Of a stretch of DNA of 64,000 nt, positions 10,267 through 42,416 are shown piece by piece. Location: the IMG/VR virus record IMGVR_UViG_3300029060_000343, one strand, 5' to 3'. How positions within the stretch are numbered: the first letter of the stretch is position 1; each line of letters starts with the position of its first letter. The translations under genes and the position numbers were made by a program. Source of the stretch: a virus. The notes under the pieces are model-generated. The model saw nothing but the letters and a program-made list of their open reading frames with translations, was not told the DNA's origin and did no database searches.

Positions 10267-11400
10267 TTATGCTGCTGTCAGTGTCCGCAGGCCTTCCTGC
10301 AGGATGTTGATGGCGGCATTCCTGTCCCTGCCCATCGTCAGACCACAGTCACATTTCATGGTGCGGACCCTGAGATCCTTCATTTCCGGATGCAGGGAAC
10401 CGCAGCAGTGACAGATCTGGGATGACGGAAACCATTTATCGACCTTGATGAGATACTTGTTTCTGTCGGCAAGCTTGTATTCGAGCATGGACAGAAACAT
10501 GCCATATCCGTTATCCAGGGTAGCTTTACCGTTCCCGAAACCTTTGTTTGCCATGGCACGCATATTTAAGGATTCCACGCATACGACATCATACCGGTTG
10601 GCTATCCCGGTAGAGATCTTATGCAGGTTATCCAGACGCTGATTGGCAATGTGTTTGTGGATCCTGTTGATCTTACGGAGCTGCTTTATGTAATTACTGG
10701 ATTTCACTTCATTCTTACGGGAACCCTGCATGCGTGACAGCCGGCGCTGCGCCCTGGCAAGCTTCCTGCTGCTCTCGCGGTAGTATTTATGATTCGTGCC
10801 AACGTTGCCGTTGTTGTCCACGTACAGCCCATCAGAGGCATAATCCAGTCCGATGGCGTTGGTTTTATCGGCAGTATAGGTATTTACAGGAGTTTCGAAT
10901 TCGAACAGGACGGAGACATAATACTTCCCGTCGGATTCCTGGGATACCGTGGCAGATTTGATGTTCCAGTCGTCTCCGGGCATACGATGGATGACAGCTT
11001 TTACTTTACCGGCCTTAGGCAGCCTGATAAAGCCGCCGTCCACGATAGCAACAGTACCCTTCTGGTTGTTGGTGGTATAAGACCTGCGGCTTCGCTTTGC
11101 GGACTTGAACTTAGGAAAACCAGTATTCTTCTTGTGCGACTTACTGAAACAGTTACGGAAGGCAGCCTGCAAATCCAACTGCTTGTTAGCAAGCGCAAGG
11201 CTGTCCACTTCTTTAAGATATGGATGATCCTTCTTGTATTTGGCAGGAGTGATAGCAGGGAATTTACCGGTAGTTTCATAGCCCTCAATCTTATCGGACA
11301 GCATGAGATTATAAACCTTCCGGCAGCATCCAAAGGTTTTTGCAAACAGGGCGCGTTGTTCAGTCGTAGGGTAGATCCGGTATCTGTAAGCATGGTTCAT
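10267..11400 (-). CDS. tnpB: TnpB (IS200/IS605 family OrfB, RuvC-like RNA-guided nuclease)
   Basis: Conserved OrfB N-terminus (YRYRIYPT), RuvC-I (GLDYA), RuvC-II (VESL), CHCCG...CDCG zinc finger, and RuvC-III (RDRNAAINI). Confidence 0.85.
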   Translation of the reverse strand: MNHAYRYRIYPTTEQRALFAKTFGCCRKVYNLMLSDKIEGYETTGKFPAITPAKYKKDHPYLKEVDSLALANKQLDLQAAFRNCFSKSHKKNTGFPKFKSAKRSRRSYTTNNQKGTVAIVDGGFIRLPKAGKVKAVIHRMPGDDWNIKSATVSQESDGKYYVSVLFEFETPVNTYTADKTNAIGLDYASDGLYVDNNGNVGTNHKYYRESSRKLARAQRRLSRMQGSRKNEVKSSNYIKQLRKINRIHKHIANQRLDNLHKISTGIANRYDVVCVESLNMRAMANKGFGNGKATLDNGYGMFLSMLEYKLADRNKYLIKVDKWFPSSQICHCCGSLHPEMKDLRVRTMKCDCGLTMGRDRNAAINILQEGLRTLTAA

Positions 11401-13930: not shown

Positions 13931-14261
13931 AATTTTCTCCTATTCTGTTATATATAACTATTATGAAAGATATTTTTTTAAATAACAAAATTTCCCGGAG
14001 CGGGGACTCCGGGAAACGCATCAAAGATAAAAGGGGAATCAGATCTGTTTTCATCTGATAATACTATTATAACAGCTTTGAAATTTATTGCAAATTTCTG
14101 CACAGAAATTATTACAAAGAAAAATAAACAAAAATAACAATACAAAACAGTATGTATTTAACAAAACAACTGTTCCATATTGTATTAATTTTAAAAATAT
14201 GATATTTTCGTTATGGCAAAAGTAGATAGATGTTTTTGTTTACGAAAGAGAGGCGAAAATC

Positions 14262-14375
14262 ATGGAAAATAATCATGAAACAAGCGGATCTAATGGACAA
14301 CCACAATCAAATCTAACCGAGCTTCTTTTATTCCTTCTTCTTATTTTTTTAATTCTTGTTCTAATTAAATTCTAA
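14262..14375 (+). CDS. small hydrophobic peptide (37 aa; MENNHETSGSNGQPQSNLTELLLFLLLIFLILVLIKF)
   Basis: AAGAGAGGCGAAAATC-ATG RBS; C-terminal TM-like segment; immediately followed by a perfect intrinsic terminator (14389-14422). Confidence 0.4.
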   Translation: MENNHETSGSNGQPQSNLTELLLFLLLIFLILVLIKF

Positions 14376-14388
14376 TTTTTCTTCTAAA

Positions 14389-14422
14389 GGAGATCTACTG
14401 TGCATTAGTAGATCTCTTTTTC
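14389..14422 (+). terminator. perfect intrinsic terminator after the 37-aa peptide gene
   Basis: GGAGATCTACT-GTGCAT-TAGTAGATCTC followed by TTTTTC. Confidence 0.65.
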
Positions 14423-14648
14423 TAATTGAATTCGCCTCTAACCACCATCATAATAGCAAAAAAATATTAAAAAAACTATATTTAATAGCTACAATTTTTT
14501 GCTACATTATTTGGAAAATGTGCACAAAAAACATTTTTTAATTTTGTATAGTATTTATTTATGTAATGGTTTAATATTTTTTTAAAAAGGTTATAATGAT
14601 ACGAAAACATATGTTCCGCCGAAAACTAAATTCATTCTTTGAAATTAT

Positions 14649-15083
14649 TTATTGATTAACAAAAAAATAAACGTCATAAACATCTGCATTTTGATGTGAT
14701 GAGATTTTAAAATATGCCTCGCATATTTTTAAGTAGTCAACTCTCCTTTTGGGAGGAATTGCTATTTCATATCTCGGATAAATGTAACGATACCAAAACA
14801 GATCCAGACACCGGTTTTGTTCGTAATACTCCATCCTTGGTTCAATAATTTGCAGAATTCCGCCTGATTTTAAATATCTGTGGAGACACTGAATCACCTT
14901 CGGTATATCAGCATGATGTAGTACGTTTTTAAGGCGAAATTCATCAACGGATCCTTCTTGCAATCCAATAATTTCGTTTGTTTCTGTATTGTATACATAA
15001 TTCAAATAGGGACCTTGAGTAATATCACATGTTTTATATCCAGGATATGGATTATATCCGCTGCCAAAATCAATTTTAAGCAT
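14649..15083 (-). CDS. small class I SAM-dependent methyltransferase-like protein
   Basis: KIDFGSG matches SAM-binding motif I (glycine-rich loop); FRLKNVLHHADIPKVIQCLHRYLKSGGILQIIEP matches the post-I/II segment of Methyltransf_11/23-type folds. Confidence 0.45.
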   Translation of the reverse strand: MLKIDFGSGYNPYPGYKTCDITQGPYLNYVYNTETNEIIGLQEGSVDEFRLKNVLHHADIPKVIQCLHRYLKSGGILQIIEPRMEYYEQNRCLDLFWYRYIYPRYEIAIPPKRRVDYLKICEAYFKISSHQNADVYDVYFFVNQ

Positions 15084-15092
15084 ACTGCACTC

Positions 15093-15893
15093 CTACGCCA
15101 AGTCGTGGTTTCCTATATCATGGCAGTAATCTTCCCACACAGAATAGACTTTATGGGAATACCGTTCATTAGAATGACAATTCGGTGCAATGATAATATC
15201 TGTCTTTTCGTATCCGGCTTCTTCCGTATCTGCGGATGCGTTTTTATCTCCATGATACCCAAACAGCCCAAATTCTTTTCCCTTCCACTCAAACGTGAAG
15301 AAATTATGTCCATCACTACGTAATAATTTAGCGCCCATGCCATAAAGCAGATCTTCATAGCTGTCTTTATAGTTTAAATTGTATCTGCCCATAAGATCTT
15401 CACATACAACCACGCCGATATCATCTGCTAAAATCATATCAACAAGTTCATATAACTTTTCCCCAGTAGACTCCCAAGATTTTGGAAGATTGATGCGTAA
15501 ATTAGGCACGTACTTTTTTGCAATCAATATCTGTTCTCTTCTGGCCTTATATTGTTCTTTAGAAGATATAGAGATTGCCATTTCTTCCAGTCCATTTTCC
15601 ACTAAAGCTTTTGTTAATTCTTCAGTTAATTTTGTACCATTTGTTACCAGACAAATTGTATTTACGTATTTATTCACTACTTCGAAATAATCTACGATAT
15701 TCGGTAAAAGCAAACTCTCTCCGCCCATAATGGTGGCTCTTTCCAGCATACCTACTTTTTTCATAATCTCTTCCATTTTTTCAATATCTAATATCTTTTC
15801 TCGCTTCTCCGGCTGAAAGCAAAAATAGCAGTTTTGATTACAATGAAAATTTGTGATAATTCGATACCGGAACACTCTATGATTATGTAACAT
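15093..15893 (-). CDS. radical SAM enzyme (viperin/MoaA/SPASM-core-like; no full SPASM Cys set)
   Basis: CNQNCYFCF (CxxxCxxC), GGESLL, and VTNGTKL...AISISS motifs. Start set at the ATG after the GGAGGAAAAT RBS. Confidence 0.65.
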   Translation of the reverse strand: MLHNHRVFRYRIITNFHCNQNCYFCFQPEKREKILDIEKMEEIMKKVGMLERATIMGGESLLLPNIVDYFEVVNKYVNTICLVTNGTKLTEELTKALVENGLEEMAISISSKEQYKARREQILIAKKYVPNLRINLPKSWESTGEKLYELVDMILADDIGVVVCEDLMGRYNLNYKDSYEDLLYGMGAKLLRSDGHNFFTFEWKGKEFGLFGYHGDKNASADTEEAGYEKTDIIIAPNCHSNERYSHKVYSVWEDYCHDIGNHDLA

Positions 15894-15906
15894 ATTTTCC
15901 TCCATA

Positions 15907-15930
15907 GAAAATGCCCCTGAATGGGGCATT
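15907..15930 (-). terminator. hairpin (attenuator/terminator) between the micro-ORF and the downstream radical SAM gene
   Basis: AAAATGCCCCTGAATGGGGCATTT, about 14 nt upstream of the radical SAM RBS. Confidence 0.5.
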
Positions 15931-16001
15931 TCTGTTAACGATTATTTATTCTCAGTAATAATAGCTAACTGACCGCATGCAGCTTTTGCAGTAATTTCTG
16001 C

Positions 16002-16067
16002 TTCAGTCGCAATGGCAACTGCGTAATCATAACCTGCTGCTCTTAACTGATTTGCGATTTTTTCCAT
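16002..16067 (-). CDS. micro-ORF (21 aa, MEKIANQLRAAGYDYASCHCD) between the two radical SAM genes
   Basis: AAAGGAGGAAAAATTC-ATG RBS. A second overlapping frame stays open to 15941 (…AVAIATEAEITAKAACGQLAIITENK). Followed by hairpin 15907-15930. Confidence 0.3.
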
Positions 16068-16088
16068 GAATTTTTCCTCCTTTATGTA

Positions 16089-16904
16089 TTACATCAAATT
16101 TCTTTTCTCGATAATACCAGATCCCATATGATTTTTCTCAGAAATCTCGTTCTCGTTAATAGGACTTAATTTTATAAAGAAATATCTAGGATCAAAATAT
16201 TTGGTCAAGATATTGATGTCAAAATCTTCATAGTCTACCAATGTCATATTGACAGTTGTTTTCAAATTACTATTTGTCCGAATCTGGCCCAGTTCTTCGA
16301 TAGACATCAGATTACTGATAGGAATTAAATTGTGTCGTCTTTCCTCATTAAGACTATGTAAGCTTACTTGTAACGTAATATTGTCTTTAATCCAGCTAAA
16401 ATCACTTCCCTGTAATCCAACTGTAGAGATATAATGATGCGTTCCTGGATATTTTTCGTCAATTATCTGAATGGCTTTTTTTACTTCTTCTATATTTAGG
16501 AACGGCTCTCCCATTCTGGTGTAATTGATTTTATGTTCCCAAGCATCTTCAAATCGATATTCCGGATTCTGTTTGATAATAAATTCCACCTGGGCTACAA
16601 TCTCTTCGGCTGTTAAGCAACGCCATCTTTTAAGTTTTCCGGTTGCGCAAAATTTACAATGCACAGGACAACCGCTCATACAACTAACACCAATCATCCA
16701 TCGATTGGTCCGGTCTCCAACTTCATATGTCTTCAGTGTGTTTTCATTGTTATTGATTGCGTCCTTTGTATAATTTGGTAAAAAAGTATCGGTGACTTCC
16801 AATGGATATCCATCCTCTGTTTCTAATGCATATACCTTTCCATTTGTAAAGGATCTGCTGCGTAATTCTTTTAACATAAGCACCTCCGTTTGTTTTTCTA
16901 CCAT
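16089..16904 (-). CDS. radical SAM enzyme, RlmN/Cfr-like (RNA methylating family), short form
   Basis: CPVHCKFCATG (CxxxCxxC followed by ATG, as in RlmN/Cfr) and RMGEPFLN (MGMGEPLLN-like). 271 aa, shorter than canonical RlmN. Motif at 16903-16919 upstream. Confidence 0.55.
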   Translation of the reverse strand: MVEKQTEVLMLKELRSRSFTNGKVYALETEDGYPLEVTDTFLPNYTKDAINNNENTLKTYEVGDRTNRWMIGVSCMSGCPVHCKFCATGKLKRWRCLTAEEIVAQVEFIIKQNPEYRFEDAWEHKINYTRMGEPFLNIEEVKKAIQIIDEKYPGTHHYISTVGLQGSDFSWIKDNITLQVSLHSLNEERRHNLIPISNLMSIEELGQIRTNSNLKTTVNMTLVDYEDFDINILTKYFDPRYFFIKLSPINENEISEKNHMGSGIIEKRNLM

Positions 16905-16964: not shown

Positions 16965-17160
16965 AGGATAATATTATATCCCTCATATGATTGAAAGTGA
17001 TAGAATTATGTTCCTTTAATTAATGAATTTAAAGGAATAGTGTATTATCCCTTTATGCAACCGGCACAGATTATTGTCCCGCTCATATTAAAAGTACCAA
17101 TATACTATCCCTCTCAAAACAATAAAAAAGAGGAACAGCTATCTGTCCCTCTCCGTTATT
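16965..17160. repeat. four degenerate direct repeats (…TATTATCCCTY / CTATCCCTCTC) at 40-70-bp spacing, iteron-like
   Basis: ATATTATATCCCTC (16970), GTATTATCCCTTT (17041), ATATACTATCCCTCTC (17100), GCTATCTGTCCCTCTCC (17140). Confidence 0.4.
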
Positions 17161-37992: not shown

Positions 37993-38015
37993 TGGAATAT
38001 TATTATAAATATTAA

Positions 38016-38106
38016 CGCCGTGGCGGGGAGTCGAACCCCGAAACCGGATTTTACTCCGAGATGGTGGATTAGCAATCCACTGCTGTACCATTTGAGCCAC
38101 CACGGC
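38016..38106 (-). tRNA. tRNA-Ser(GCU), class II
   Basis: Cloverleaf by eye: T-arm GGGGUUCGACUCCCC; anticodon loop UUGCUAA; long variable arm. Confidence 0.7.
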
Positions 38107-38119
38107 AAGAAATATAAAC

Positions 38120-38190
38120 GGCCCATTGCGGATTCGAACCGCAGTCCCTGGGGTCAAGGCCCAGTGCATTGACCGCTATGCTAATGGGCT
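38120..38190 (-). tRNA. tRNA-Gln(UUG) (anticodon loop CCUUGAC, atypical C33)
   Basis: T-arm GCGGUUCGAAUCCGC; anticodon stem CUGGG/CCCAG. Confidence 0.5.
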
Positions 38191-38197
38191 AAAAAAC

Positions 38198-38287
38198 GCC
38201 AGTGACAGGACTCGAACCTGTACGTCGACATAAATGCCGGCTTGCCTGTGTTCGAAGCAGGTGCTGTACCACTTGAGCCACACTGGC
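38198..38287 (-). tRNA. tRNA-Ser(CGA), class II
   Basis: T-arm CAGGUUCGAGUCCUG; loop UUCGAAC; long variable arm. Confidence 0.65.
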
Positions 38288-38289
38288 AG

Positions 38290-38380
38290 ACTCCCGTGCC
38301 CCGCAGATTGGCAGGTTTATCACGAATACCGCAGCCGTTAGTCAATTTCGACTGAAATACCGTTTAGCACGGGCTTTTTG
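38290..38380 (-). other. ~90-nt tRNA-sized structured element without canonical T-loop (tRNA pseudogene or unknown small RNA)
   Basis: Terminal complementarity GCCCGUG...CACGGG enclosing internal hairpins; no GTTCGAATC-type T-loop. Confidence 0.3.
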
Positions 38381-38437
38381 CATATACACTGAATAGAAAC
38401 AGGTGACTAATCTGCTTCGCACAGCTTAAATGCAAAG

Positions 38438-38511
38438 ACATCGGTGGGATTCGAACCCACGATAAAACCTGTTTTGCAGACAGGCGCCTTAGACCACTCG
38501 ACCACGATGCC
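38438..38511 (-). tRNA. tRNA-Cys(GCA)
   Basis: T-arm GUGGGUUCGAAUCCCAC; anticodon loop CUGCAAA. Confidence 0.7.
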
Positions 38512-38518
38512 ATAATAC

Positions 38519-38592
38519 TACGGACAGCGGGACTCGAACCCGCAAAGTACGATTTAGAAGACCGTTGTTTTATCCAATTAGACTATGCCCGT
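38519..38592 (-). tRNA. tRNA-Arg(UCU)
   Basis: T-arm GCGGGUUCGAGUCCCGC; anticodon loop CUUCUAA. Confidence 0.7.
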
Positions 38593-38598
38593 ATAAAA

Positions 38599-38671
38599 TA
38601 TCCCCAGGCAGATTTGAACTGCCGTTCCCTGCGTGAGAGGCAGATGTCCTTGACCGCTAGACTATGGGGAC
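38599..38671 (-). tRNA. tRNA-Glu(CUC)
   Basis: 5' GUCCCC Glu-like acceptor; T-arm GGCAGUUCAAAUCUGCC; loop CUCUCAC. Confidence 0.65.
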
Positions 38672-38675
38672 TTAA

Positions 38676-38767
38676 CGCTGTGACAGGGATTCGAACCCTG
38701 AAAGCGGGAATCTCACCCGACATGCCGGATTTCAAGGCCGGTGCTGTACCAGTTGAGCCATCACAGC
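38676..38767 (-). tRNA. tRNA-Ser(UGA), class II
   Basis: T-arm CAGGGUUCGAAUCCCUG; loop CUUGAAA; long variable arm. Confidence 0.65.
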
Positions 38768-38772
38768 AAAAG

Positions 38773-38863
38773 CGGAACGGGAGGGACTTGAACCCTCAAA
38801 GCGTGGATTGACACGACATGTCCGGCTTCCAACCGGGTCCTGTACCAATTGAGGCACCGCTCC
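38773..38863 (-). tRNA. tRNA-Ser(GGA), class II
   Basis: T-arm GAGGGUUCAAGUCCCUC; loop UUGGAAG; long variable arm. Confidence 0.6.
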
Positions 38864-38891
38864 ATATCAGGCTCTTTAACAAGAGCCTTTA

Positions 38892-39413
38892 TCATTTTGA
38901 AATTTTATCAGCAATTCCGGATGCAACATAAGACTCCGGCTTAACCTTTGCCTCAAAACCCATTGAAGTGACCCAGCCTATGAGCTCAGGAATCAATTCC
39001 TTCGTCTTACCATGTTCAGAATAACCAGCATCAATATGAATAGAAAACTCTGTGTTCAAAAATACGTCTTCATATTCCGTTGTCTCAAATATTGTAATAA
39101 GCTGTTCTGCTATTTCAAGTGAATCGCCGGTTTCCACACGAAGTTTTGTTCTTACATCTGAAATACGGTCACGTGCGTTAATCTTATAAAAGAAAATACC
39201 GCCGTGTCCTTCACAGATCACAGCAATTACACTTACTTCTTTCGTATAATCAAAATTCTGCGAATCCGTACCGATCGTAATATGAATACCGGTACCATAC
39301 TCTTTCATTCTTTCATAGTAAGCCTTTATATATTTTGGAATTTCCTGTATCATAAGCTCACCGTGTGATGGCGAAATCCAGTTTTCACTGTAATGTTTCT
39401 TACTCATGATCAC
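38892..39413 (-). CDS. hypothetical protein embedded in the tRNA array (possible RNase-H-like/DUF458-type fold)
   Basis: ORF track; TIGTDSQ segment; flanked by tRNAs on both sides. Confidence 0.45.
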   Translation of the reverse strand: MIMSKKHYSENWISPSHGELMIQEIPKYIKAYYERMKEYGTGIHITIGTDSQNFDYTKEVSVIAVICEGHGGIFFYKINARDRISDVRTKLRVETGDSLEIAEQLITIFETTEYEDVFLNTEFSIHIDAGYSEHGKTKELIPELIGWVTSMGFEAKVKPESYVASGIADKISK

Positions 39414-39437
39414 GTTGCTCCTTTCTGATATTTTTTA

Positions 39438-39513
39438 GCAGGCGCGGAGGGATTCGAACCCCCAGACAATCACGGTTTTGGAGACCGTTGCTGTACCAGT
39501 TGAGCCACGCACC
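39438..39513 (-). tRNA. tRNA-Trp(CCA)
   Basis: T-arm GGGGGUUCGAAUCCCUC; loop CUCCAAA. Confidence 0.7.
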
Positions 39514-39755
39514 CATAATAATGAACAATAAAAAACAGCCTCTTTTGATAAACTTTTTATCAGAAGATGCTGCAGAGAATGCCGGTAATTTTGTTATGCG
39601 AAAATTTTTGCATCAACAAATAAAGCAGTACATCTTCTTATCATGTCTACTCTCTGACCACGAACTATTGGATTGTCTGCTACATCTGTTTACGTTATGC
39701 ATAATTATTTACTCCTTCCTGCAATTTTTCTGTATCTGCATAAAAACTGGAAAAA

Positions 39756-39829
39756 TACGCCAAATCGGATTCGAACCGATACTAACAGGGGCTTAAACCC
39801 TGTGCCTCTGCCGATTGGGCTATTGGCGC
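39756..39829 (-). tRNA. tRNA with anticodon UAA (Leu codon UUA), class I length with Leu-type D-arm
   Basis: Loop UUUAAGC (G37); 3-bp D-stem with long D-loop; 5-nt variable region. Confidence 0.55.
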
Positions 39830-39833
39830 ATAA

Positions 39834-39906
39834 TGGGTATGACAGGCCATGATCCTGCAACCTTCGGCTTAAGAGGCCGATACTCTGCCACTTGAGTTAC
39901 ATACCC
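39834..39906 (-). tRNA. tRNA-Lys(CUU), noncanonical T-loop
   Basis: Perfect acceptor GGGUAUG/CAUACCC; loop CUCUUAA; T-loop AUCAUGG. Confidence 0.6.
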
Positions 39907-39928
39907 GTGGATACACATGCGGTATCAG

Positions 39929-40012
39929 TGCACCCGACGAGACTCGAACTCGCATGGAAAGTAATTCCGCCAGATTAAAAGTCTGGTGCCATACCAATTA
40001 GGCGACGGATGC
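39929..40012 (-). tRNA. class-II-shaped tRNA with anticodon UUU (Lys codon AAA)
   Basis: Loop CUUUUAA; extra arm GGAAUUACUUUCC; 3-bp D-stem. Confidence 0.5.
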
Positions 40013-40091
40013 ATACATTATAACTTTGATAATCGCTTGCATAACTGTTTTCGTTTCATGATTATTTCTCCTTTATTATAAAGATTTTCAA

Positions 40092-40163
40092 TCCCAAGGA
40101 CAGGATTTGAACCTGCGTTTGCCGGGTATGAACCGGCCGTACTCGCCGCTATACTACCCTGGA
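40092..40163 (-). tRNA. tRNA-Met(CAU), elongator or Ile2-type
   Basis: Loop UUCAUAC; T-arm GCAGGUUCAAAUCCUGU. Confidence 0.65.
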
Positions 40164-40164
40164 G

Positions 40165-40241
40165 TAGCGGGTCCAGGAGTCGAAGCCTGGTATCGCAAGG
40201 GTTATGAGCCCTGCATGGTAAATCCGTTCCACTCACCCGCA
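40165..40241 (-). tRNA. initiator tRNA-fMet(CAU)
   Basis: GGGCUCAUAACCC anticodon arm with three G-C pairs, identical to the bacterial initiator; 1:72 mismatch. Confidence 0.65.
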
Positions 40242-40243
40242 AA

Positions 40244-40316
40244 TGCTGATAACAGGACTCGAACCTGTAACCCCATGCTTGTAAGGCATATGCTCTCCCA
40301 GTTGAGCTACATCAGC
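40244..40316 (-). tRNA. tRNA-Val(UAC)
   Basis: Canonical cloverleaf; loop CUUACAA; T-arm CAGGUUCGAGUCCUG. Confidence 0.75.
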
Positions 40317-40320
40317 ATAG

Positions 40321-40391
40321 TTGTGGTGGACAGAGTCGGACTGTCGTTAACCGCTCATCAGACGGTCTTTCTACCATTGAAATACACCACA
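40321..40391 (-). tRNA. tRNA-Ile(GAU), noncanonical T-loop
   Basis: Loop CUGAUGA; T-loop UCCGACU. Confidence 0.55.
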
Positions 40392-40404
40392 ATATTTTTT
40401 ATGA

Positions 40405-40478
40405 AGCCTGTGACAAGATTTGAACTTGCAACCCTCTACTTACGAGATAGACGCTCTGCCAATTAGAGCTACACAGGC
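40405..40478 (-). tRNA. tRNA-Thr(CGU)
   Basis: Loop CUCGUAA; T-arm CAAGUUCAAAUCUUG. Confidence 0.7.
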
Positions 40479-40487
40479 ATTTTACAG

Positions 40488-40559
40488 TGCTCCCATGGCG
40501 ACTCGAACGCCAACTACAGAGTTCGTAGCCCTGCCGTCTATCCATTAGCGTATGAGAGC
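40488..40559 (-). tRNA. tRNA-Arg(ACG)
   Basis: Loop CUACGAA; T-arm GGCGUUCGAGUCGCC. Confidence 0.7.
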
Positions 40560-40563
40560 ATAG

Positions 40564-40634
40564 CAGGCGGTAACCGAATCGAACGGGTGTCTCACGGCTC
40601 AGAACCGCACGGTTTACCTCTAACCTAACCGCCT
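40564..40634 (-). tRNA. tRNA-Gln(CUG)
   Basis: Loop UUCUGAG; T-loop UUCGAUU. Confidence 0.6.
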
Positions 40635-40636
40635 AT

Positions 40637-40709
40637 AAGCCGCAGAAGGGACTCGAACCCTTAATCCCCTGATTACAAAGCAGGTGCATTACCATTGTGC
40701 TACAGCGGC
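40637..40709 (-). tRNA. tRNA-Thr(UGU)
   Basis: Loop UUUGUAA; T-arm AGGGUUCGAGUCCCU. Confidence 0.65.
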
Positions 40710-40723
40710 ATATTTAATTTCAG

Positions 40724-40807
40724 GGAGACCAGTGGGGCTCGAACCCACGTAGGAATTGCTTCCGCAGAGCCACAATCTGCTGCCTAACCAACTCGGCCAC
40801 AGCCTCC
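40724..40807 (-). tRNA. tRNA-His(GUG) with G-1:C73 and an unusual extra arm
   Basis: Loop UUGUGGC; 8-bp acceptor including G-1; extra arm GGAAGCAAUUCC. Confidence 0.5.
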
Positions 40808-40811
40808 ATAG

Positions 40812-40883
40812 CTGGAATGGCGGGACTTGAACCCACAACCTACCGGTTAACAGCCGGTCGCTCTACCATTGAGCTACAAACCA
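40812..40883 (-). tRNA. tRNA-Asn(GUU)-like copy with weakened acceptor stem (possible pseudo-tRNA)
   Basis: Body nearly identical to the tRNA-Asn at 41637..41709; two U·U mismatches in the acceptor. Confidence 0.4.
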
Positions 40884-40900
40884 ATACTATATTATCTAAA

Positions 40901-40974
40901 TGGGGCGAGTGAGAATCGAACTCACGACACACGGCTTATAAGGCCGCTGCTCTTGACCCCTGAGCTACCACCCC
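40901..40974 (-). tRNA. tRNA-Ile(UAU)
   Basis: Loop CUUAUAA; T-arm GUGAGUUCGAUUCUCAC. Confidence 0.6.
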
Positions 40975-41060
40975 TTATGAAATAAGGTTCGGTATAGATA
41001 TTCGTCTCATAGTCTTGTTTCTCCTTTATATTTGTTATACTCTTTCTACAGGAAAGAAAA

Positions 41061-41134
41061 TGTACCAGAAGGGATTCGAACCCATAGAAAACCGGATTTG
41101 AGCCGGCCCCGTCTGCCAGTTGCGGCACTGATGC
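41061..41134 (-). tRNA. tRNA with anticodon CAA (Leu codon UUG), class I length with Leu-type D-arm
   Basis: Loop CUCAAAU; D-arm CCGCAACUGGCAGACGG; short variable region. Confidence 0.5.
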
Positions 41135-41140
41135 ATACAG

Positions 41141-41213
41141 TCGGAATGACAGGTCTCGAACCTGCAGCCTCATGATCCCAAATCACGCGCGCTACCAATT
41201 GCGCCACATCCCG
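41141..41213 (-). tRNA. tRNA-Pro(UGG)
   Basis: 5' CGGGAUG; loop UUUGGGA; T-arm GCAGGUUCGAGACCUGU. Confidence 0.7.
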
Positions 41214-41219
41214 ATACAG

Positions 41220-41293
41220 TGCCCATGAGTGGTTTCGAACCACCAACCTCTGCCATCTGAAGACAGTTCGTCTGCCAATTGCGCCACATGGAC
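41220..41293 (-). tRNA. tRNA with anticodon CAG (Leu codon CUG), class I length
   Basis: Loop UUCAGAU; T-arm GGUGGUUCGAAACCACU; 5-nt variable region. Confidence 0.5.
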
Positions 41294-41300
41294 ATCACAG

Positions 41301-41378
41301 TACCTCGAATGGGAGTCGAACCCATAAACAATCACAGAGTCCTTAGCTCTGCCGCTTTGCCAATTTGCGTACCGAGGC
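41301..41378 (-). tRNA. tRNA with anticodon AAG (Leu codon CUU), short variable region
   Basis: Loop CUAAGGA; Leu-type D-arm CGCAAAUUGGCAAAGCG; T-arm UGGGUUCGACUCCCA. Confidence 0.5.
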
Positions 41379-41392
41379 ATATTTATTTTAAG

Positions 41393-41476
41393 TGGGCGAA
41401 GAAGGACTTGAACCTTCAGAAGCCGAAGCCAACTGTTTTACAGACAGTACCGCTGCCAATTACGGGATATTCGCCC
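41393..41476 (-). tRNA. tRNA-Tyr(GUA), class II
   Basis: Loop CUGUAAA; long variable arm; T-arm GAAGGUUCAAGUCCUUC. Confidence 0.7.
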
Positions 41477-41481
41477 AAAAG

Positions 41482-41569
41482 TCGGCAGGGTGAGAGTCGA
41501 ACTCACAATGTTTACCACGAGGGTCACAGTTTTACAGACTGCTTGCTTCAGCCTTTTGCATACCTGCCG
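41482..41569 (-). tRNA. tRNA-Tyr(GUA), second copy with divergent sequence, class II
   Basis: Loop CUGUAAA; perfect acceptor CGGCAGG/CCUGCCG; long variable arm. Confidence 0.65.
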
Positions 41570-41636
41570 TTAATAATATTCAGTTCCCATATAATAATAG
41601 TCTGGCATATCAGTCATCTCCTTTACATTTCTTAAG

Positions 41637-41709
41637 CTCTCACAGCAGGACTTGAACCTGCAACATCCCGGTTAACAGCCGGACGCTCTACCGATTGAGC
41701 TATGCGAGA
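41637..41709 (-). tRNA. tRNA-Asn(GUU)
   Basis: Loop CUGUUAA; T-arm GCAGGUUCAAGUCCUGC. Confidence 0.7.
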
Positions 41710-41713
41710 ATAG

Positions 41714-41786
41714 AGTGCGTGAACGGATTCGAACCGTCCCTTTCTGCTTGGAAGGCAGATGTGCTATCCGCTGACACTACACACAC
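41714..41786 (-). tRNA. tRNA-Gly(UCC)
   Basis: Loop CUUCCAA; T-arm GACGGUUCGAAUCCGUU. Confidence 0.65.
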
Positions 41787-41791
41787 ATAAG

Positions 41792-41867
41792 CGACTCCAA
41801 CGGGATTTGAACCCGTGTTATTCCTGCGTGACAGGCAGGTGCCATAAACCAGCTAGGCGATGGAGCC
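41792..41867 (-). tRNA. tRNA-Asp(GUC)
   Basis: Loop CUGUCAC; T-arm CACGGGUUCAAAUCCCGU. Confidence 0.65.
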
Positions 41868-41871
41868 ATAA

Positions 41872-41943
41872 TGCCTCGTTTCGGTTACGATCCGATCCTC
41901 TGGAGCTTCAATCCAGCGCTTCTACCAAGTTAGCTTACGAGGC
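41872..41943 (-). tRNA. tRNA-Phe(GAA), noncanonical T-loop
   Basis: Perfect acceptor GCCUCGU/ACGAGGC; loop UUGAAGC; T-loop AUCGUAA. Confidence 0.6.
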
Positions 41944-42050
41944 TCGGTAAAGTCAGTATCGTCTTTACCGCCATAAAATCGTTTATCCATATTTTTTCAA
42001 TGTCCTTTCGTATATTGTATAAATCCTGAGTGCCTGGTTCAGAATTTAAG

Positions 42051-42123
42051 AGCAGATGACGGAACTCGAATCCGCATTTCTGACTTGGCAAGCCAGTGTA
42101 TTAGCCAGCTATACGACATCTGC
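42051..42123 (-). tRNA. tRNA-Gly(GCC)
   Basis: Perfect acceptor GCAGAUG/CAUCUGC; loop UUGCCAA; T-arm GCGGAUUCGAGUUCCGU. Confidence 0.7.
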
Positions 42124-42190
42124 ATGTGGGACAAACGGAGTGCCTGGTTCCATAAGTCCCTGTTTTGTTGTATTACGGATATTTCCGTAG

Positions 42191-42263
42191 CGACCGATGC
42201 GGGATTCGAACCCACGTCTCGGGAGTGAAATTCCCGTGACCTCGTCCTCTAGTCGAATCGGCC
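42191..42263 (-). tRNA. tRNA-Glu(UUC)
   Basis: Perfect acceptor GGCCGAU/AUCGGUC; loop AUUUCAC; T-arm GUGGGUUCGAAUCCCGC. Confidence 0.65.
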
Positions 42264-42270
42264 AAATCAA

Positions 42271-42347
42271 TGGAGCATATGAGAATCGAACCCATCTGTT
42301 TTTCCTGTTTGCAAAACAGGCGACCACCCCTTGCAGTCCCATACCCC
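42271..42347 (-). tRNA. tRNA-Ala(UGC) with G3:U70
   Basis: 5' GGGGUAU with G3·U70 wobble; loop UUUGCAA; T-arm AUGGGUUCGAUUCUCAU. Confidence 0.6.
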
Positions 42348-42416
42348 ATATAATTAAAAAGACCACTAAACTAAGACAATTTCTTAATCCAGTGGTCATG
42401 ATTTCATATTTCCAAT

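Follow-up and report, generated by a model that had tools for sequence, protein, structure and literature searches.

The virus record IMGVR_UViG_3300029060_000343, whose whole analysed stretch of 64,000 nucleotides is referred to here as the window, raises the question of what a 41-residue open reading frame (ORF) is doing between the genes of two radical S-adenosylmethionine (SAM) enzymes. Inspection of ORFs and motifs places it second among four collinear minus-strand ORFs at positions 14649-16904, which encode a first radical SAM enzyme (rSAM1), the peptide, a second radical SAM enzyme (rSAM2) and a small methyltransferase. An earlier reading made from the DNA letters alone (the sequence-only reading) had described both radical SAM ORFs with their characteristic motifs, a small ORF with a perfect Shine-Dalgarno sequence and a small class I methyltransferase as the last gene; all of these are present, the last as a class I methyltransferase-like ORF, and the Shine-Dalgarno sequence is a GGAGG. 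The window is a phage, with PHROG matches, a Bro-N protein, a TnpB-like gene, a C5 DNA methylase and 35 tRNA genes. The first two genes very probably encode an RlmN/Cfr enzyme that is split and receives its tail in trans, and the module as a whole is read, with moderate confidence, as an adenine C-methylase of the class-A radical SAM type made in two pieces, whose substrate is probably RNA, together with an accessory enzyme pair.

rSAM1 possesses the cluster cysteines of a CxxxCxxC motif (C79, C83 and C86) and the GEP, STxG and SLH(S/A) core motifs, as in RlmN and Cfr. The RlmN and Cfr models are its best NCBIfam matches and cover the radical SAM core only (profile positions ~100-250 of 355), with 80.3 bits for the RlmN model TIGR00048 against a cut-off of 290 bits and 48-52 bits for the Cfr models against cut-offs of 468-550. 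Its matches among solved structures are also RlmN and Cfr, and the earlier assignment of the first enzyme as RlmN/Cfr-like holds. Only ~64 residues precede the core, and matches to the RlmN model begin at profile position 91-101; at the other end, rSAM1 lacks a C-terminal Cys tail and stops just before the last helix-strand-loop of the RlmN/Cfr fold. A search of one database returned 2,229 relatives at E <= 1e-5, the best 120 of which are 257-281 aa long, and a second database returned 2,916 representatives at 50% identity and E <= 1e-3, more distant RlmN-like proteins included. Database labels of these relatives are 'hypothetical' or 'radical SAM protein'. Phages seem to be almost the sole carriers of the family; what few matches there are in genome collections come without exception from metagenome-assembled contigs, which may themselves be phage and are binned mostly with gut Bacilli/Clostridia and in a few cases with Bacteroidales or archaea, and no match was found among the isolate genomes within these collections.

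The 41-aa ORF is one unbroken frame, MEKIANQLRAAGYDYAVAIATEAEITAKAACGQLAIITENK, comprising a helix, a last beta-strand ('YAVAIAT') and an 'AACGQL' loop, and its sole Cys (Cys31) aligns with C355 of E. coli RlmN and C338 of Cfr. When rSAM1 and the peptide are concatenated, residues 67-306 align to the RlmN structures 6fz6 (E 2e-14), 4pl1, 5hr6 and 3rf9 (3rfa has the same sequence as 3rf9), and the peptide part of the alignment, '...G(F/I)..V......(D)I.AACGQL', reaches the end of the structure. A profile of 22 enzyme and peptide pairs from different loci matched only RlmN (E 2e-22) and Cfr (E 8e-19) in the PDB, through 'aaCGQL'. These alignments show that the predicted peptide is exactly the piece of the fold that rSAM1 is without, methyl-carrier Cys loop included: the Cys and 'AACGQL' are present and invariant in trans, on the separate ORF, and not in cis on rSAM1.

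A search with the peptide returned 238 homologues, the best 120 of which are all 38-71 aa long; 110 of these 120 have a single Cys, and the motif G-[YF]-D-x-A-V-A-I-A-T-x-A-E-I-x-A-x-A-A-C-G-Q-L is nearly invariant. The ratio of nonsynonymous to synonymous polymorphism (pN/pS) of the gene is 0.26 (pN 0.20; pS 0.78, saturated), and the gene is under purifying selection. It has been given a name in ~6 of the best 120 database matches and is a 'hypothetical protein' in isolate genomes. The sequence-only reading had proposed a 21-aa ORF with a second open frame continuing, and re-sequencing of 15.94-16.07 kb to decide between 21 and ~41 aa; the 21-aa version is a one-base reading slip, and no re-sequencing is needed because the frame is already continuous at 41 aa. 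A reading of 'RAAGY' in the peptide as a glycyl-radical spare part was dropped, as R-x-x-G-Y is not conserved in the glycyl-radical sense and homology to the CGQL tail explains the peptide.

The enzyme and peptide pair is found in ~65 phage or metagenome-assembled genome (MAG) loci and is never fused there. Among 42 phage loci, from 40 viral contigs and two isolate genomes (Kehishuvirus 'tikkala' and Moorella phage MTATph1), a separate peptide ORF is present in 41, and the remaining locus is truncated by the contig end; most MAG loci also carry a separate small peptide ORF. The sequence-only reading had named absence of the micro-ORF from syntenic homologues as a mark against its view; the ORF is in fact present in almost every locus. 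Its position is variable. The order in the window, rSAM1-tail-rSAM2-methyltransferase, is a minority variant shared with L055-L058; the usual four-gene order, in ~20 loci, is rSAM1-rSAM2-methyltransferase-tail, and L028 has tail-rSAM1-rSAM2-methyltransferase. In most related loci the peptide gene lies after the methyltransferase or before the first enzyme, without a hairpin. The tail gene lies 1.1-2.6 kb downstream of the enzyme in L003, L012, L014, L022 and L035, two small genes separate enzyme and tail in Pectobacterium phage Arno162, one of the more distant members (like Vibrio phage D479) in which the split persists, and four complete phage genomes carry enzyme and tail alone, without rSAM2 or the third radical SAM protein described below (rSAM3). 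The split RlmN/Cfr form is widespread in phages, and the split is old and universal within the clade.

Two simpler origins of the split were considered and rejected. A broken or pseudogenised RlmN, produced by a nonsense mutation or a sequencing error, is countered by the recurrence of the split in ~65 loci, the varying position of the peptide gene and the purifying selection. In the window, rSAM1 and the peptide are separated by an in-frame gap of 21 nt with an ATG on both sides, but the variable position of the tail gene excludes read-through or frameshifting as a general joining route: elsewhere there are 2-nt out-of-frame gaps, overlaps, intervening genes and reversed order, which also dispose of recoding and of a bypass of the gene-60 type, and read-through is further countered by the peptide's own Shine-Dalgarno sequence. 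In P0378, a single ORF of 695 aa (L060 67-2154), a tail-like segment (..LGYEFYISTISANEKHVGAACGNLAL..) stands at the N-terminus, followed by an rSAM1-like domain and then by a second radical SAM domain that resembles rSAM3. The three are linked by this fusion, which speaks for the tail as an enzyme part that can be attached at either end or supplied in trans. As P0378 is known from a single contig, the fusion is supportive, not decisive. In form it is a circular permutation plus a Rosetta-stone fusion, from that one contig only.

RlmN and Cfr, the latter a resistance enzyme of clinical importance, are the textbook case of methylation via a methyl-cysteine radical bound to the protein. They are the sole solved structures matched by the enzyme and peptide profile, RlmN as the C2-methylase of 23S rRNA A2503 and tRNA A37 and Cfr as the C8-methylase of A2503. 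The phage enzyme shares with them the CxxxCxxC, GEP, STxG and SLH(S/A) motifs and the C-terminal strand with its 'AACGQL' Cys loop, whereas its methyl-carrier tail is on a separate 41-aa gene product, its resolving Cys is replaced by Gly, it has no N-terminal domain, and it belongs to phages, where a second radical SAM enzyme and a methyltransferase often accompany it. In RlmN and Cfr the C-terminal Cys is first methylated by SAM, and the methyl then becomes the radical that attacks C2 or C8 of adenine (PMC9692996). Given the same core and tail motifs, the same two-SAM ping-pong chemistry is expected of the split enzyme. The peptide would dock in trans as the last beta-strand, with its Cys placed beside the SAM-bound [4Fe-4S] cluster. 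A first SAM would methylate this Cys, a second would be cleaved to a 5'-deoxyadenosyl radical that takes a hydrogen from the S-methyl group, and the S-CH2 radical would add to C2 or C8 of adenine to give methyl-adenine. The target would most probably be RNA, either position 37 of phage or host tRNA or rRNA, and rSAM2 and the methyltransferase may share this substrate or act on the adduct. That the reaction is RNA adenine methylation is a tentative assignment that falls a little short of an even chance.

The RNA context of the module counts towards this assignment. tRNA genes lie within 6 kb of the module in 10 of 39 loci, with a tmRNA gene in one more, and a Thg1-like gene comes after the module in L058. 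The 35 tRNA genes of the window cover all 20 amino acids and lie ~21 kb from the module; should position 37 of tRNA be the target of the split RlmN-like enzyme, this array may be relevant. The sequence-only reading had offered RNA or nucleotide modification as an alternative function for the pair of radical SAM enzymes; this stays the best functional frame, whereas the viperin identity that was to supply the nucleotide branch is unsupported (see below). Full-text literature searches returned no paper on a split RlmN/Cfr enzyme, on a phage one or on this module, in agreement with the earlier impression that the combination is undescribed.

Several observations weigh against a canonical RNA methylase. 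The resolving Cys (C118 in RlmN, C105 in Cfr) has been reported to be indispensable, and the RlmN C118A mutant traps a stable protein-RNA crosslink (PMC9692996). At the C118 column, seven residues before the first cluster Cys, the window has Gly72, and 151 of 152 family members have Gly. Three residues past this column, Cys75 is conserved in 130 members and is Thr or Val in 22 of the 152, all the most divergent ones included. In several members the three cluster ligands are the only Cys of the enzyme; L031 is one of them, and its peptide too is limited to the one Cys. With C118 lost and some members without a spare Cys, turnover may not be canonical, and the adduct-resolution step must work differently. 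Furthermore, rSAM1 is without the N-terminal (HhH-like, RNA-binding) accessory domain of RlmN, and so its substrate may not be tRNA or rRNA; NAD+ salvage genes, which an RNA methylase does not explain, adjoin the module in at least 13 of ~40 non-redundant loci; a single-sequence AlphaFold2 (AF2) model of the concatenate of rSAM1 and peptide reaches a predicted local distance difference test (pLDDT) score of only 38; and the tail module is tandem-duplicated within one ORF of Vibrio phage D479 (L050 4815-5096; 2 x VKEAGFDAGLAIATDAEVxAGAACGQMAIL), which is odd for a structural subunit.

The loss of C118 is not unique to split enzymes. Unsplit phage relatives with both cysteines are present in Stenotrophomonas phage ANB28, amid tRNA genes, and as a paralogue in L004. 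An exhaustive search of 1.84 billion representatives recovered canonical, fused without a C118 equivalent, split, and Cys-loop-less clades. The fused proteins P0427, P0430, P0453 and others combine an 'SNCGQ' tail with Ile, Met or Thr in the C118 column, and an RlmN-like clade that includes P0414, P0426 and P0431 ends right after the last strand, with neither a Cys loop nor a C118 equivalent. A strict rule that the split goes with loss of C118 is weakened by these clades.

The rival explanation that survives best, although we consider it unlikely, holds that the adenine belongs to a non-RNA substrate, namely NAD+, ADP-ribose, a derived immune signal or phage DNA, and that the module belongs to a counter-defence island. 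Its direct neighbours are NAD+ salvage genes in several distinct lineages (L004, L005, L007, L008, L017, L019, L024, L037, L043-48, L054, L065, L066 and L075), in several different layouts: NMNAT-Nudix and NAMPT directly upstream; PncA-NAPRTase-Nudix upstream with NadE-NadK-NadD-CinA downstream; or a (PncA-like) isochorismatase downstream. ADP-ribosylglycohydrolase genes lie nearby in four loci (L004, L005, L007 and L008), L052 has a Tad2/Sequestin gene three genes upstream, and a NADAR gene lies ~4 kb away in close relatives of the window (L055/56). The absence of the RlmN N-terminal domain from rSAM1 agrees with a non-RNA substrate, as do the replication genes that flank the module in L001, L002, L046 and L058. 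The closest folds of rSAM2, moreover, include the purine and pyrimidine nucleotide enzymes MoaA and viperin, both of which act on nucleoside triphosphates. However, no NAD genes were found in the window at 5-26 kb, and the support is one of association, in phages whose auxiliary genes tend to cluster whatever their function. We know of no class-A radical SAM methylase with a non-RNA substrate, and radical SAM methylases are slow, which counts against genome-wide DNA modification. The neighbour associations suggest a role in take-over or counter-defence and do not fix the substrate; with NAD+ salvage, anti-Thoeris and tRNA genes as recurrent neighbours, the module may have an unrecognised part in either.

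A second rival, slightly less likely again, makes the tail sacrificial. The S-CH2 radical would add to adenine and the peptide would stay attached via a methylene thioether, so that it would be a stoichiometric co-substrate that tags, and perhaps inactivates, the target RNA or nucleotide. The peptide would then be a consumable methylene donor that leaves a Cys-S-CH2- bridge to C2 or C8 of adenine in host or phage RNA or in an NAD-related nucleotide, and the adduct would be converted into a further product by rSAM2 and the methyltransferase, or processed by rSAM3 and its Cys-tailed partner protein, where present. The crosslink trapped by C118A RlmN is exactly such an adduct (PMC9692996). The Gly at the C118 column, the members without a spare Cys, the duplicated tail of D479, the strong ribosome-binding site and freely movable position of the peptide gene, and the three extra invariant Cys on barrel strands of rSAM2, which are compatible with C-S chemistry, all agree with this explanation. 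The fusion in P0378 speaks against it, as a single turnover would crosslink the whole enzyme to its target, and so do the fused RlmN-like clades, in which the loss of C118 is not tied to the split. The four complete phage genomes with enzyme and tail have no rSAM2 or rSAM3 to process an adduct, and a peptide adduct on tRNA or rRNA would hurt the phage's own translation.

Either outcome would matter beyond this locus. If a methyl-carrier Cys does reside on a diffusible 4.5-kDa peptide and the enzyme has no resolving Cys, the chemistry of the last step would have to be understood anew, and a split enzyme would be a convenient two-component system in which to study each half-reaction, with a possible use in site-specific peptide-RNA crosslinking. 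If the peptide is a consumable donor, the module would be a gene-encoded peptide-nucleobase conjugation system in phage-host conflict.

A very unlikely explanation, and one that is already largely refuted, is that of the sequence-only reading, which saw in the small peptide, hairpin and radical SAM gene the classical layout of a ribosomally synthesized and post-translationally modified peptide (RiPP) locus, with the 41-aa precursor matured by the downstream radical SAM enzyme and methyltransferase. The window does have this layout, and elsewhere rSAM3 adjoins a precursor-like protein of ~110 aa with a Gly/Cys-rich tail. The peptide, however, is homologous to the RlmN/Cfr catalytic tail, completes the upstream enzyme and is nearly invariant over distant phages, with no leader/core split. 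It occurs with rSAM1 and not with rSAM2: about half of the loci have the peptide without any second radical SAM gene, the four complete phage genomes without rSAM2 and rSAM3 have it too, and most four-gene loci have the peptide gene after the methyltransferase. In addition, Pfam detects no SPASM or RRE domain in rSAM2.

rSAM2 has a MoaA/viperin-type fold and is a member of neither family. Pfam matches are limited to Radical_SAM and Fer4_12, so the proposed SPASM-core identity is not borne out. Its AF2 model is confident (pLDDT 93), and the best fold matches include SPASM/twitch enzymes, MoaA and viperin. With MoaA (GTP 3',8-cyclase) and viperin it shares a partial TIM-barrel radical SAM core and a CNxxCxFC-type motif, at 13-20% sequence identity, and all family-specific scores are far below their cut-offs. 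The least probable explanation of all is that rSAM2 is a viperin-like maker of 3'-deoxy-3',4'-didehydro (ddh) nucleotide chain terminators, unrelated to its RlmN-like neighbour: viperin is among the top fold matches, and prokaryotic viperin models match weakly over the N-terminal ~100 residues (NF038283, 49 bits; PADLOC pVip models, E 5e-16, residues 17-116 only), but the curated cut-off is 180 bits, only profile positions 11-119 of 281 are covered, MoaA and Tes are better by fold, extra invariant Cys lie in the half without a viperin-model match, and in every context inspected rSAM2 is in the same module as rSAM1, the methyltransferase and the tail, with genes that often overlap.

Three extra cysteines of rSAM2 (C81, C164 and C257) are invariant or near-invariant and are spread over three parts of the sequence, which suggests that they may be ligands of an auxiliary cluster or catalytic thiols. 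In MoaA the auxiliary-cluster Cys sit together near the C-terminus; MoaA models match the N-terminal core of rSAM2 only, and a MoaA-type C-terminal cluster site was not found in it. The first two Cys of the cluster motif are separated by three residues in the window and by 5-11 in relatives. These relatives number only 124, all unnamed or with generic names, and 50,697 isolate phage genomes gave no match to rSAM2. In the contexts inspected, the pair of rSAM2 and methyltransferase is found only beside the split enzyme, in ~30 loci. The 144-aa protein scores 20.1 bits against Pfam Methyltransf_11, just under the 21.2-bit cut-off, and matches phrog_5399 'SAM-dependent methyltransferase' at E 8e-23; its closest solved structure is the type 11 methyltransferase 3i9f (E 1e-5). 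Its motif I, DFGSGYNP, is invariant, and NVxHH and LDxxWYR are specific to the family.

In other loci (L003, L007, L008, L010, L012, L014, L022 and L035; for example L035 6776-7087 and 7090-7977) the gap between enzyme and tail is often occupied by rSAM3, a different radical SAM protein of 274-310 aa with four extra invariant Cys (C17, C175 and a CxC motif). Its usual partner is a protein of 100-150 aa (103-116 aa in five of six loci) with a Gly/Ser-rich tail, D-x-x-C-x-R-G-G...C-COOH, that always ends in Cys. Treating rSAM2 and rSAM3 as one family was rejected, as hhalign aligns the N-terminal core only. rSAM3 is also present in uncultured phages of 630-735 kb.

Two known kinds of divided enzyme invite comparison. 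GrcA/YfiD is a small stand-alone 'spare part' that supplies the C-terminal catalytic segment of pyruvate formate-lyase in trans. It has a glycyl-radical motif and repairs a damaged full-length enzyme, whereas rSAM1 never has a tail of its own and its chemistry is based on Cys-methyl. Phage genes can also be split or invaded by mobile elements, as in the T4-type split of nrdA and of gp39-60 and in inteins. The rSAM1 family resembles these in being hit by an intein (L037 and P0361) and in having HNH endonuclease genes near the module in several loci, and it is plausible that mobile elements were the origin of the fission of rSAM1 and tail. Unlike genes split in this way, however, the rSAM1 split is ancient and clade-wide, the halves can be reordered, and there is mostly no endonuclease between them. 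The intein of L037 (4759-6561) and P0361 is 339 aa long, contains a LAGLIDADG homing endonuclease and is inserted immediately before the third cluster Cys (GCPVGCKF | C...VHN | CATG).

The coordinates of the module and of other features of the window are given in Table 1.

Table 1. Features of the 64,000-nt window, by position and strand.
Feature	Position	Strand	Motifs or remarks
rSAM1 (probable split class-A RlmN/Cfr-type large subunit)	16089-16904	-	CPVHCKFCATG, RMGEPFLN
41-aa ORF (probable detached RlmN/Cfr C-terminal tail)	15942-16067	-	own GGAGG at 16076-16080
Stem-loop, terminator-like or RNA-stability element	15906-15933	-	seam between enzyme-tail pair and accessory pair
rSAM2 (MoaA/viperin/twitch fold group), 266 aa	15093-15893	-	CNQNCYFCF, GGESLL, VTNGTKL, AISISS
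Probable minimal class I SAM-dependent methyltransferase, 144 aa	14649-15083	-	motif I DFGSGYNP
Terminator-like hairpin with T-run, 3' end of DprA-like gene	17127-17154	-	12-pair stem, then TTTATTGTTT
Weak promoter-like match	17033-17005		9/12 positions
tRNA gene array	38015-42348	-	35 tRNA genes
TnpB/IS605 OrfB-like gene	10267-11400	-	HTH_OrfB_IS605, OrfB_IS605, Cas12f1-like TNB domains
AT-rich region	13931-14648		~700 nt, no ORF >=60 aa
GNAT acetyltransferase-domain ORF, 241 aa	17703-18428	-	GNAT domain at residues 40-133

As the upstream DprA-like gene ends in a strong terminator-like hairpin, the four genes of the module look like one transcription unit. This hairpin is the 5' boundary of the unit and is followed by a 234-nt intergenic gap, which contains the single weak promoter-like match; the scan gave no excess of promoter-like sites over shuffled sequence. 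rSAM1 is 271 aa as called, and its true start is probably the ATG at 16877, which gives 262 aa, has a GGAGG 5 nt upstream and agrees with the 260-265 aa of relatives. The true start of rSAM2 is probably the ATG at 15893, also with a GGAGG 5 nt upstream and with relatives of 236-268 aa; a longer alternative frame (278 aa) has its start codon inside the hairpin that precedes the gene.

That hairpin, which the sequence-only reading had called attenuator-like, is strong and lies just ahead of the ribosome-binding site of rSAM2, as described. It is formed by AAAUGCCCC-AUUCA-GGGGCAUUU, followed by UUCU, with a folding free energy (dG) of -17.6 kcal/mol (z -2.96; one of 200 shuffled sequences folds as well). 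A hairpin is present at the same place in L058, the rSAM1 of which is ~89% identical, with another sequence (AUACUCCUUAA...UUAAGGAGUAU), then UCUUUUU, and z = -3.7. The structure rather than the sequence is thus conserved between the two, which fits a leaky terminator or a 3' stabiliser that divides the enzyme-tail pair from the accessory pair, and not an attenuator: no alternative pairing or leader logic for attenuation is seen at the hairpin. For an intrinsic terminator the stem is good, but the tract after it is no more than UUUUCU; the hairpin was not flagged by a scan for consensus terminators and has no match in Rfam.

Some further features of the neighbourhood were noted. SPFH/Band-7 (prohibitin-like) genes recur near the RlmN-like gene (L001, which is Kehishuvirus, L056/L057, and hits H11 and H24), and two Stenotrophomonas/Xanthomonas phage records label the RlmN-like region itself 'prohibitin family protein'. 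The AT-rich region lies directly downstream of the methyltransferase in the window; in the 99%-identical relatives L055-57 a metallophosphoesterase gene comes straight after the methyltransferase, with more genes beyond. The 241-aa ORF of the window carries a C-terminal metallophosphoesterase-like fragment after its GNAT domain, and may be a recombinant of the Metallophos gene present at the same position in relatives.

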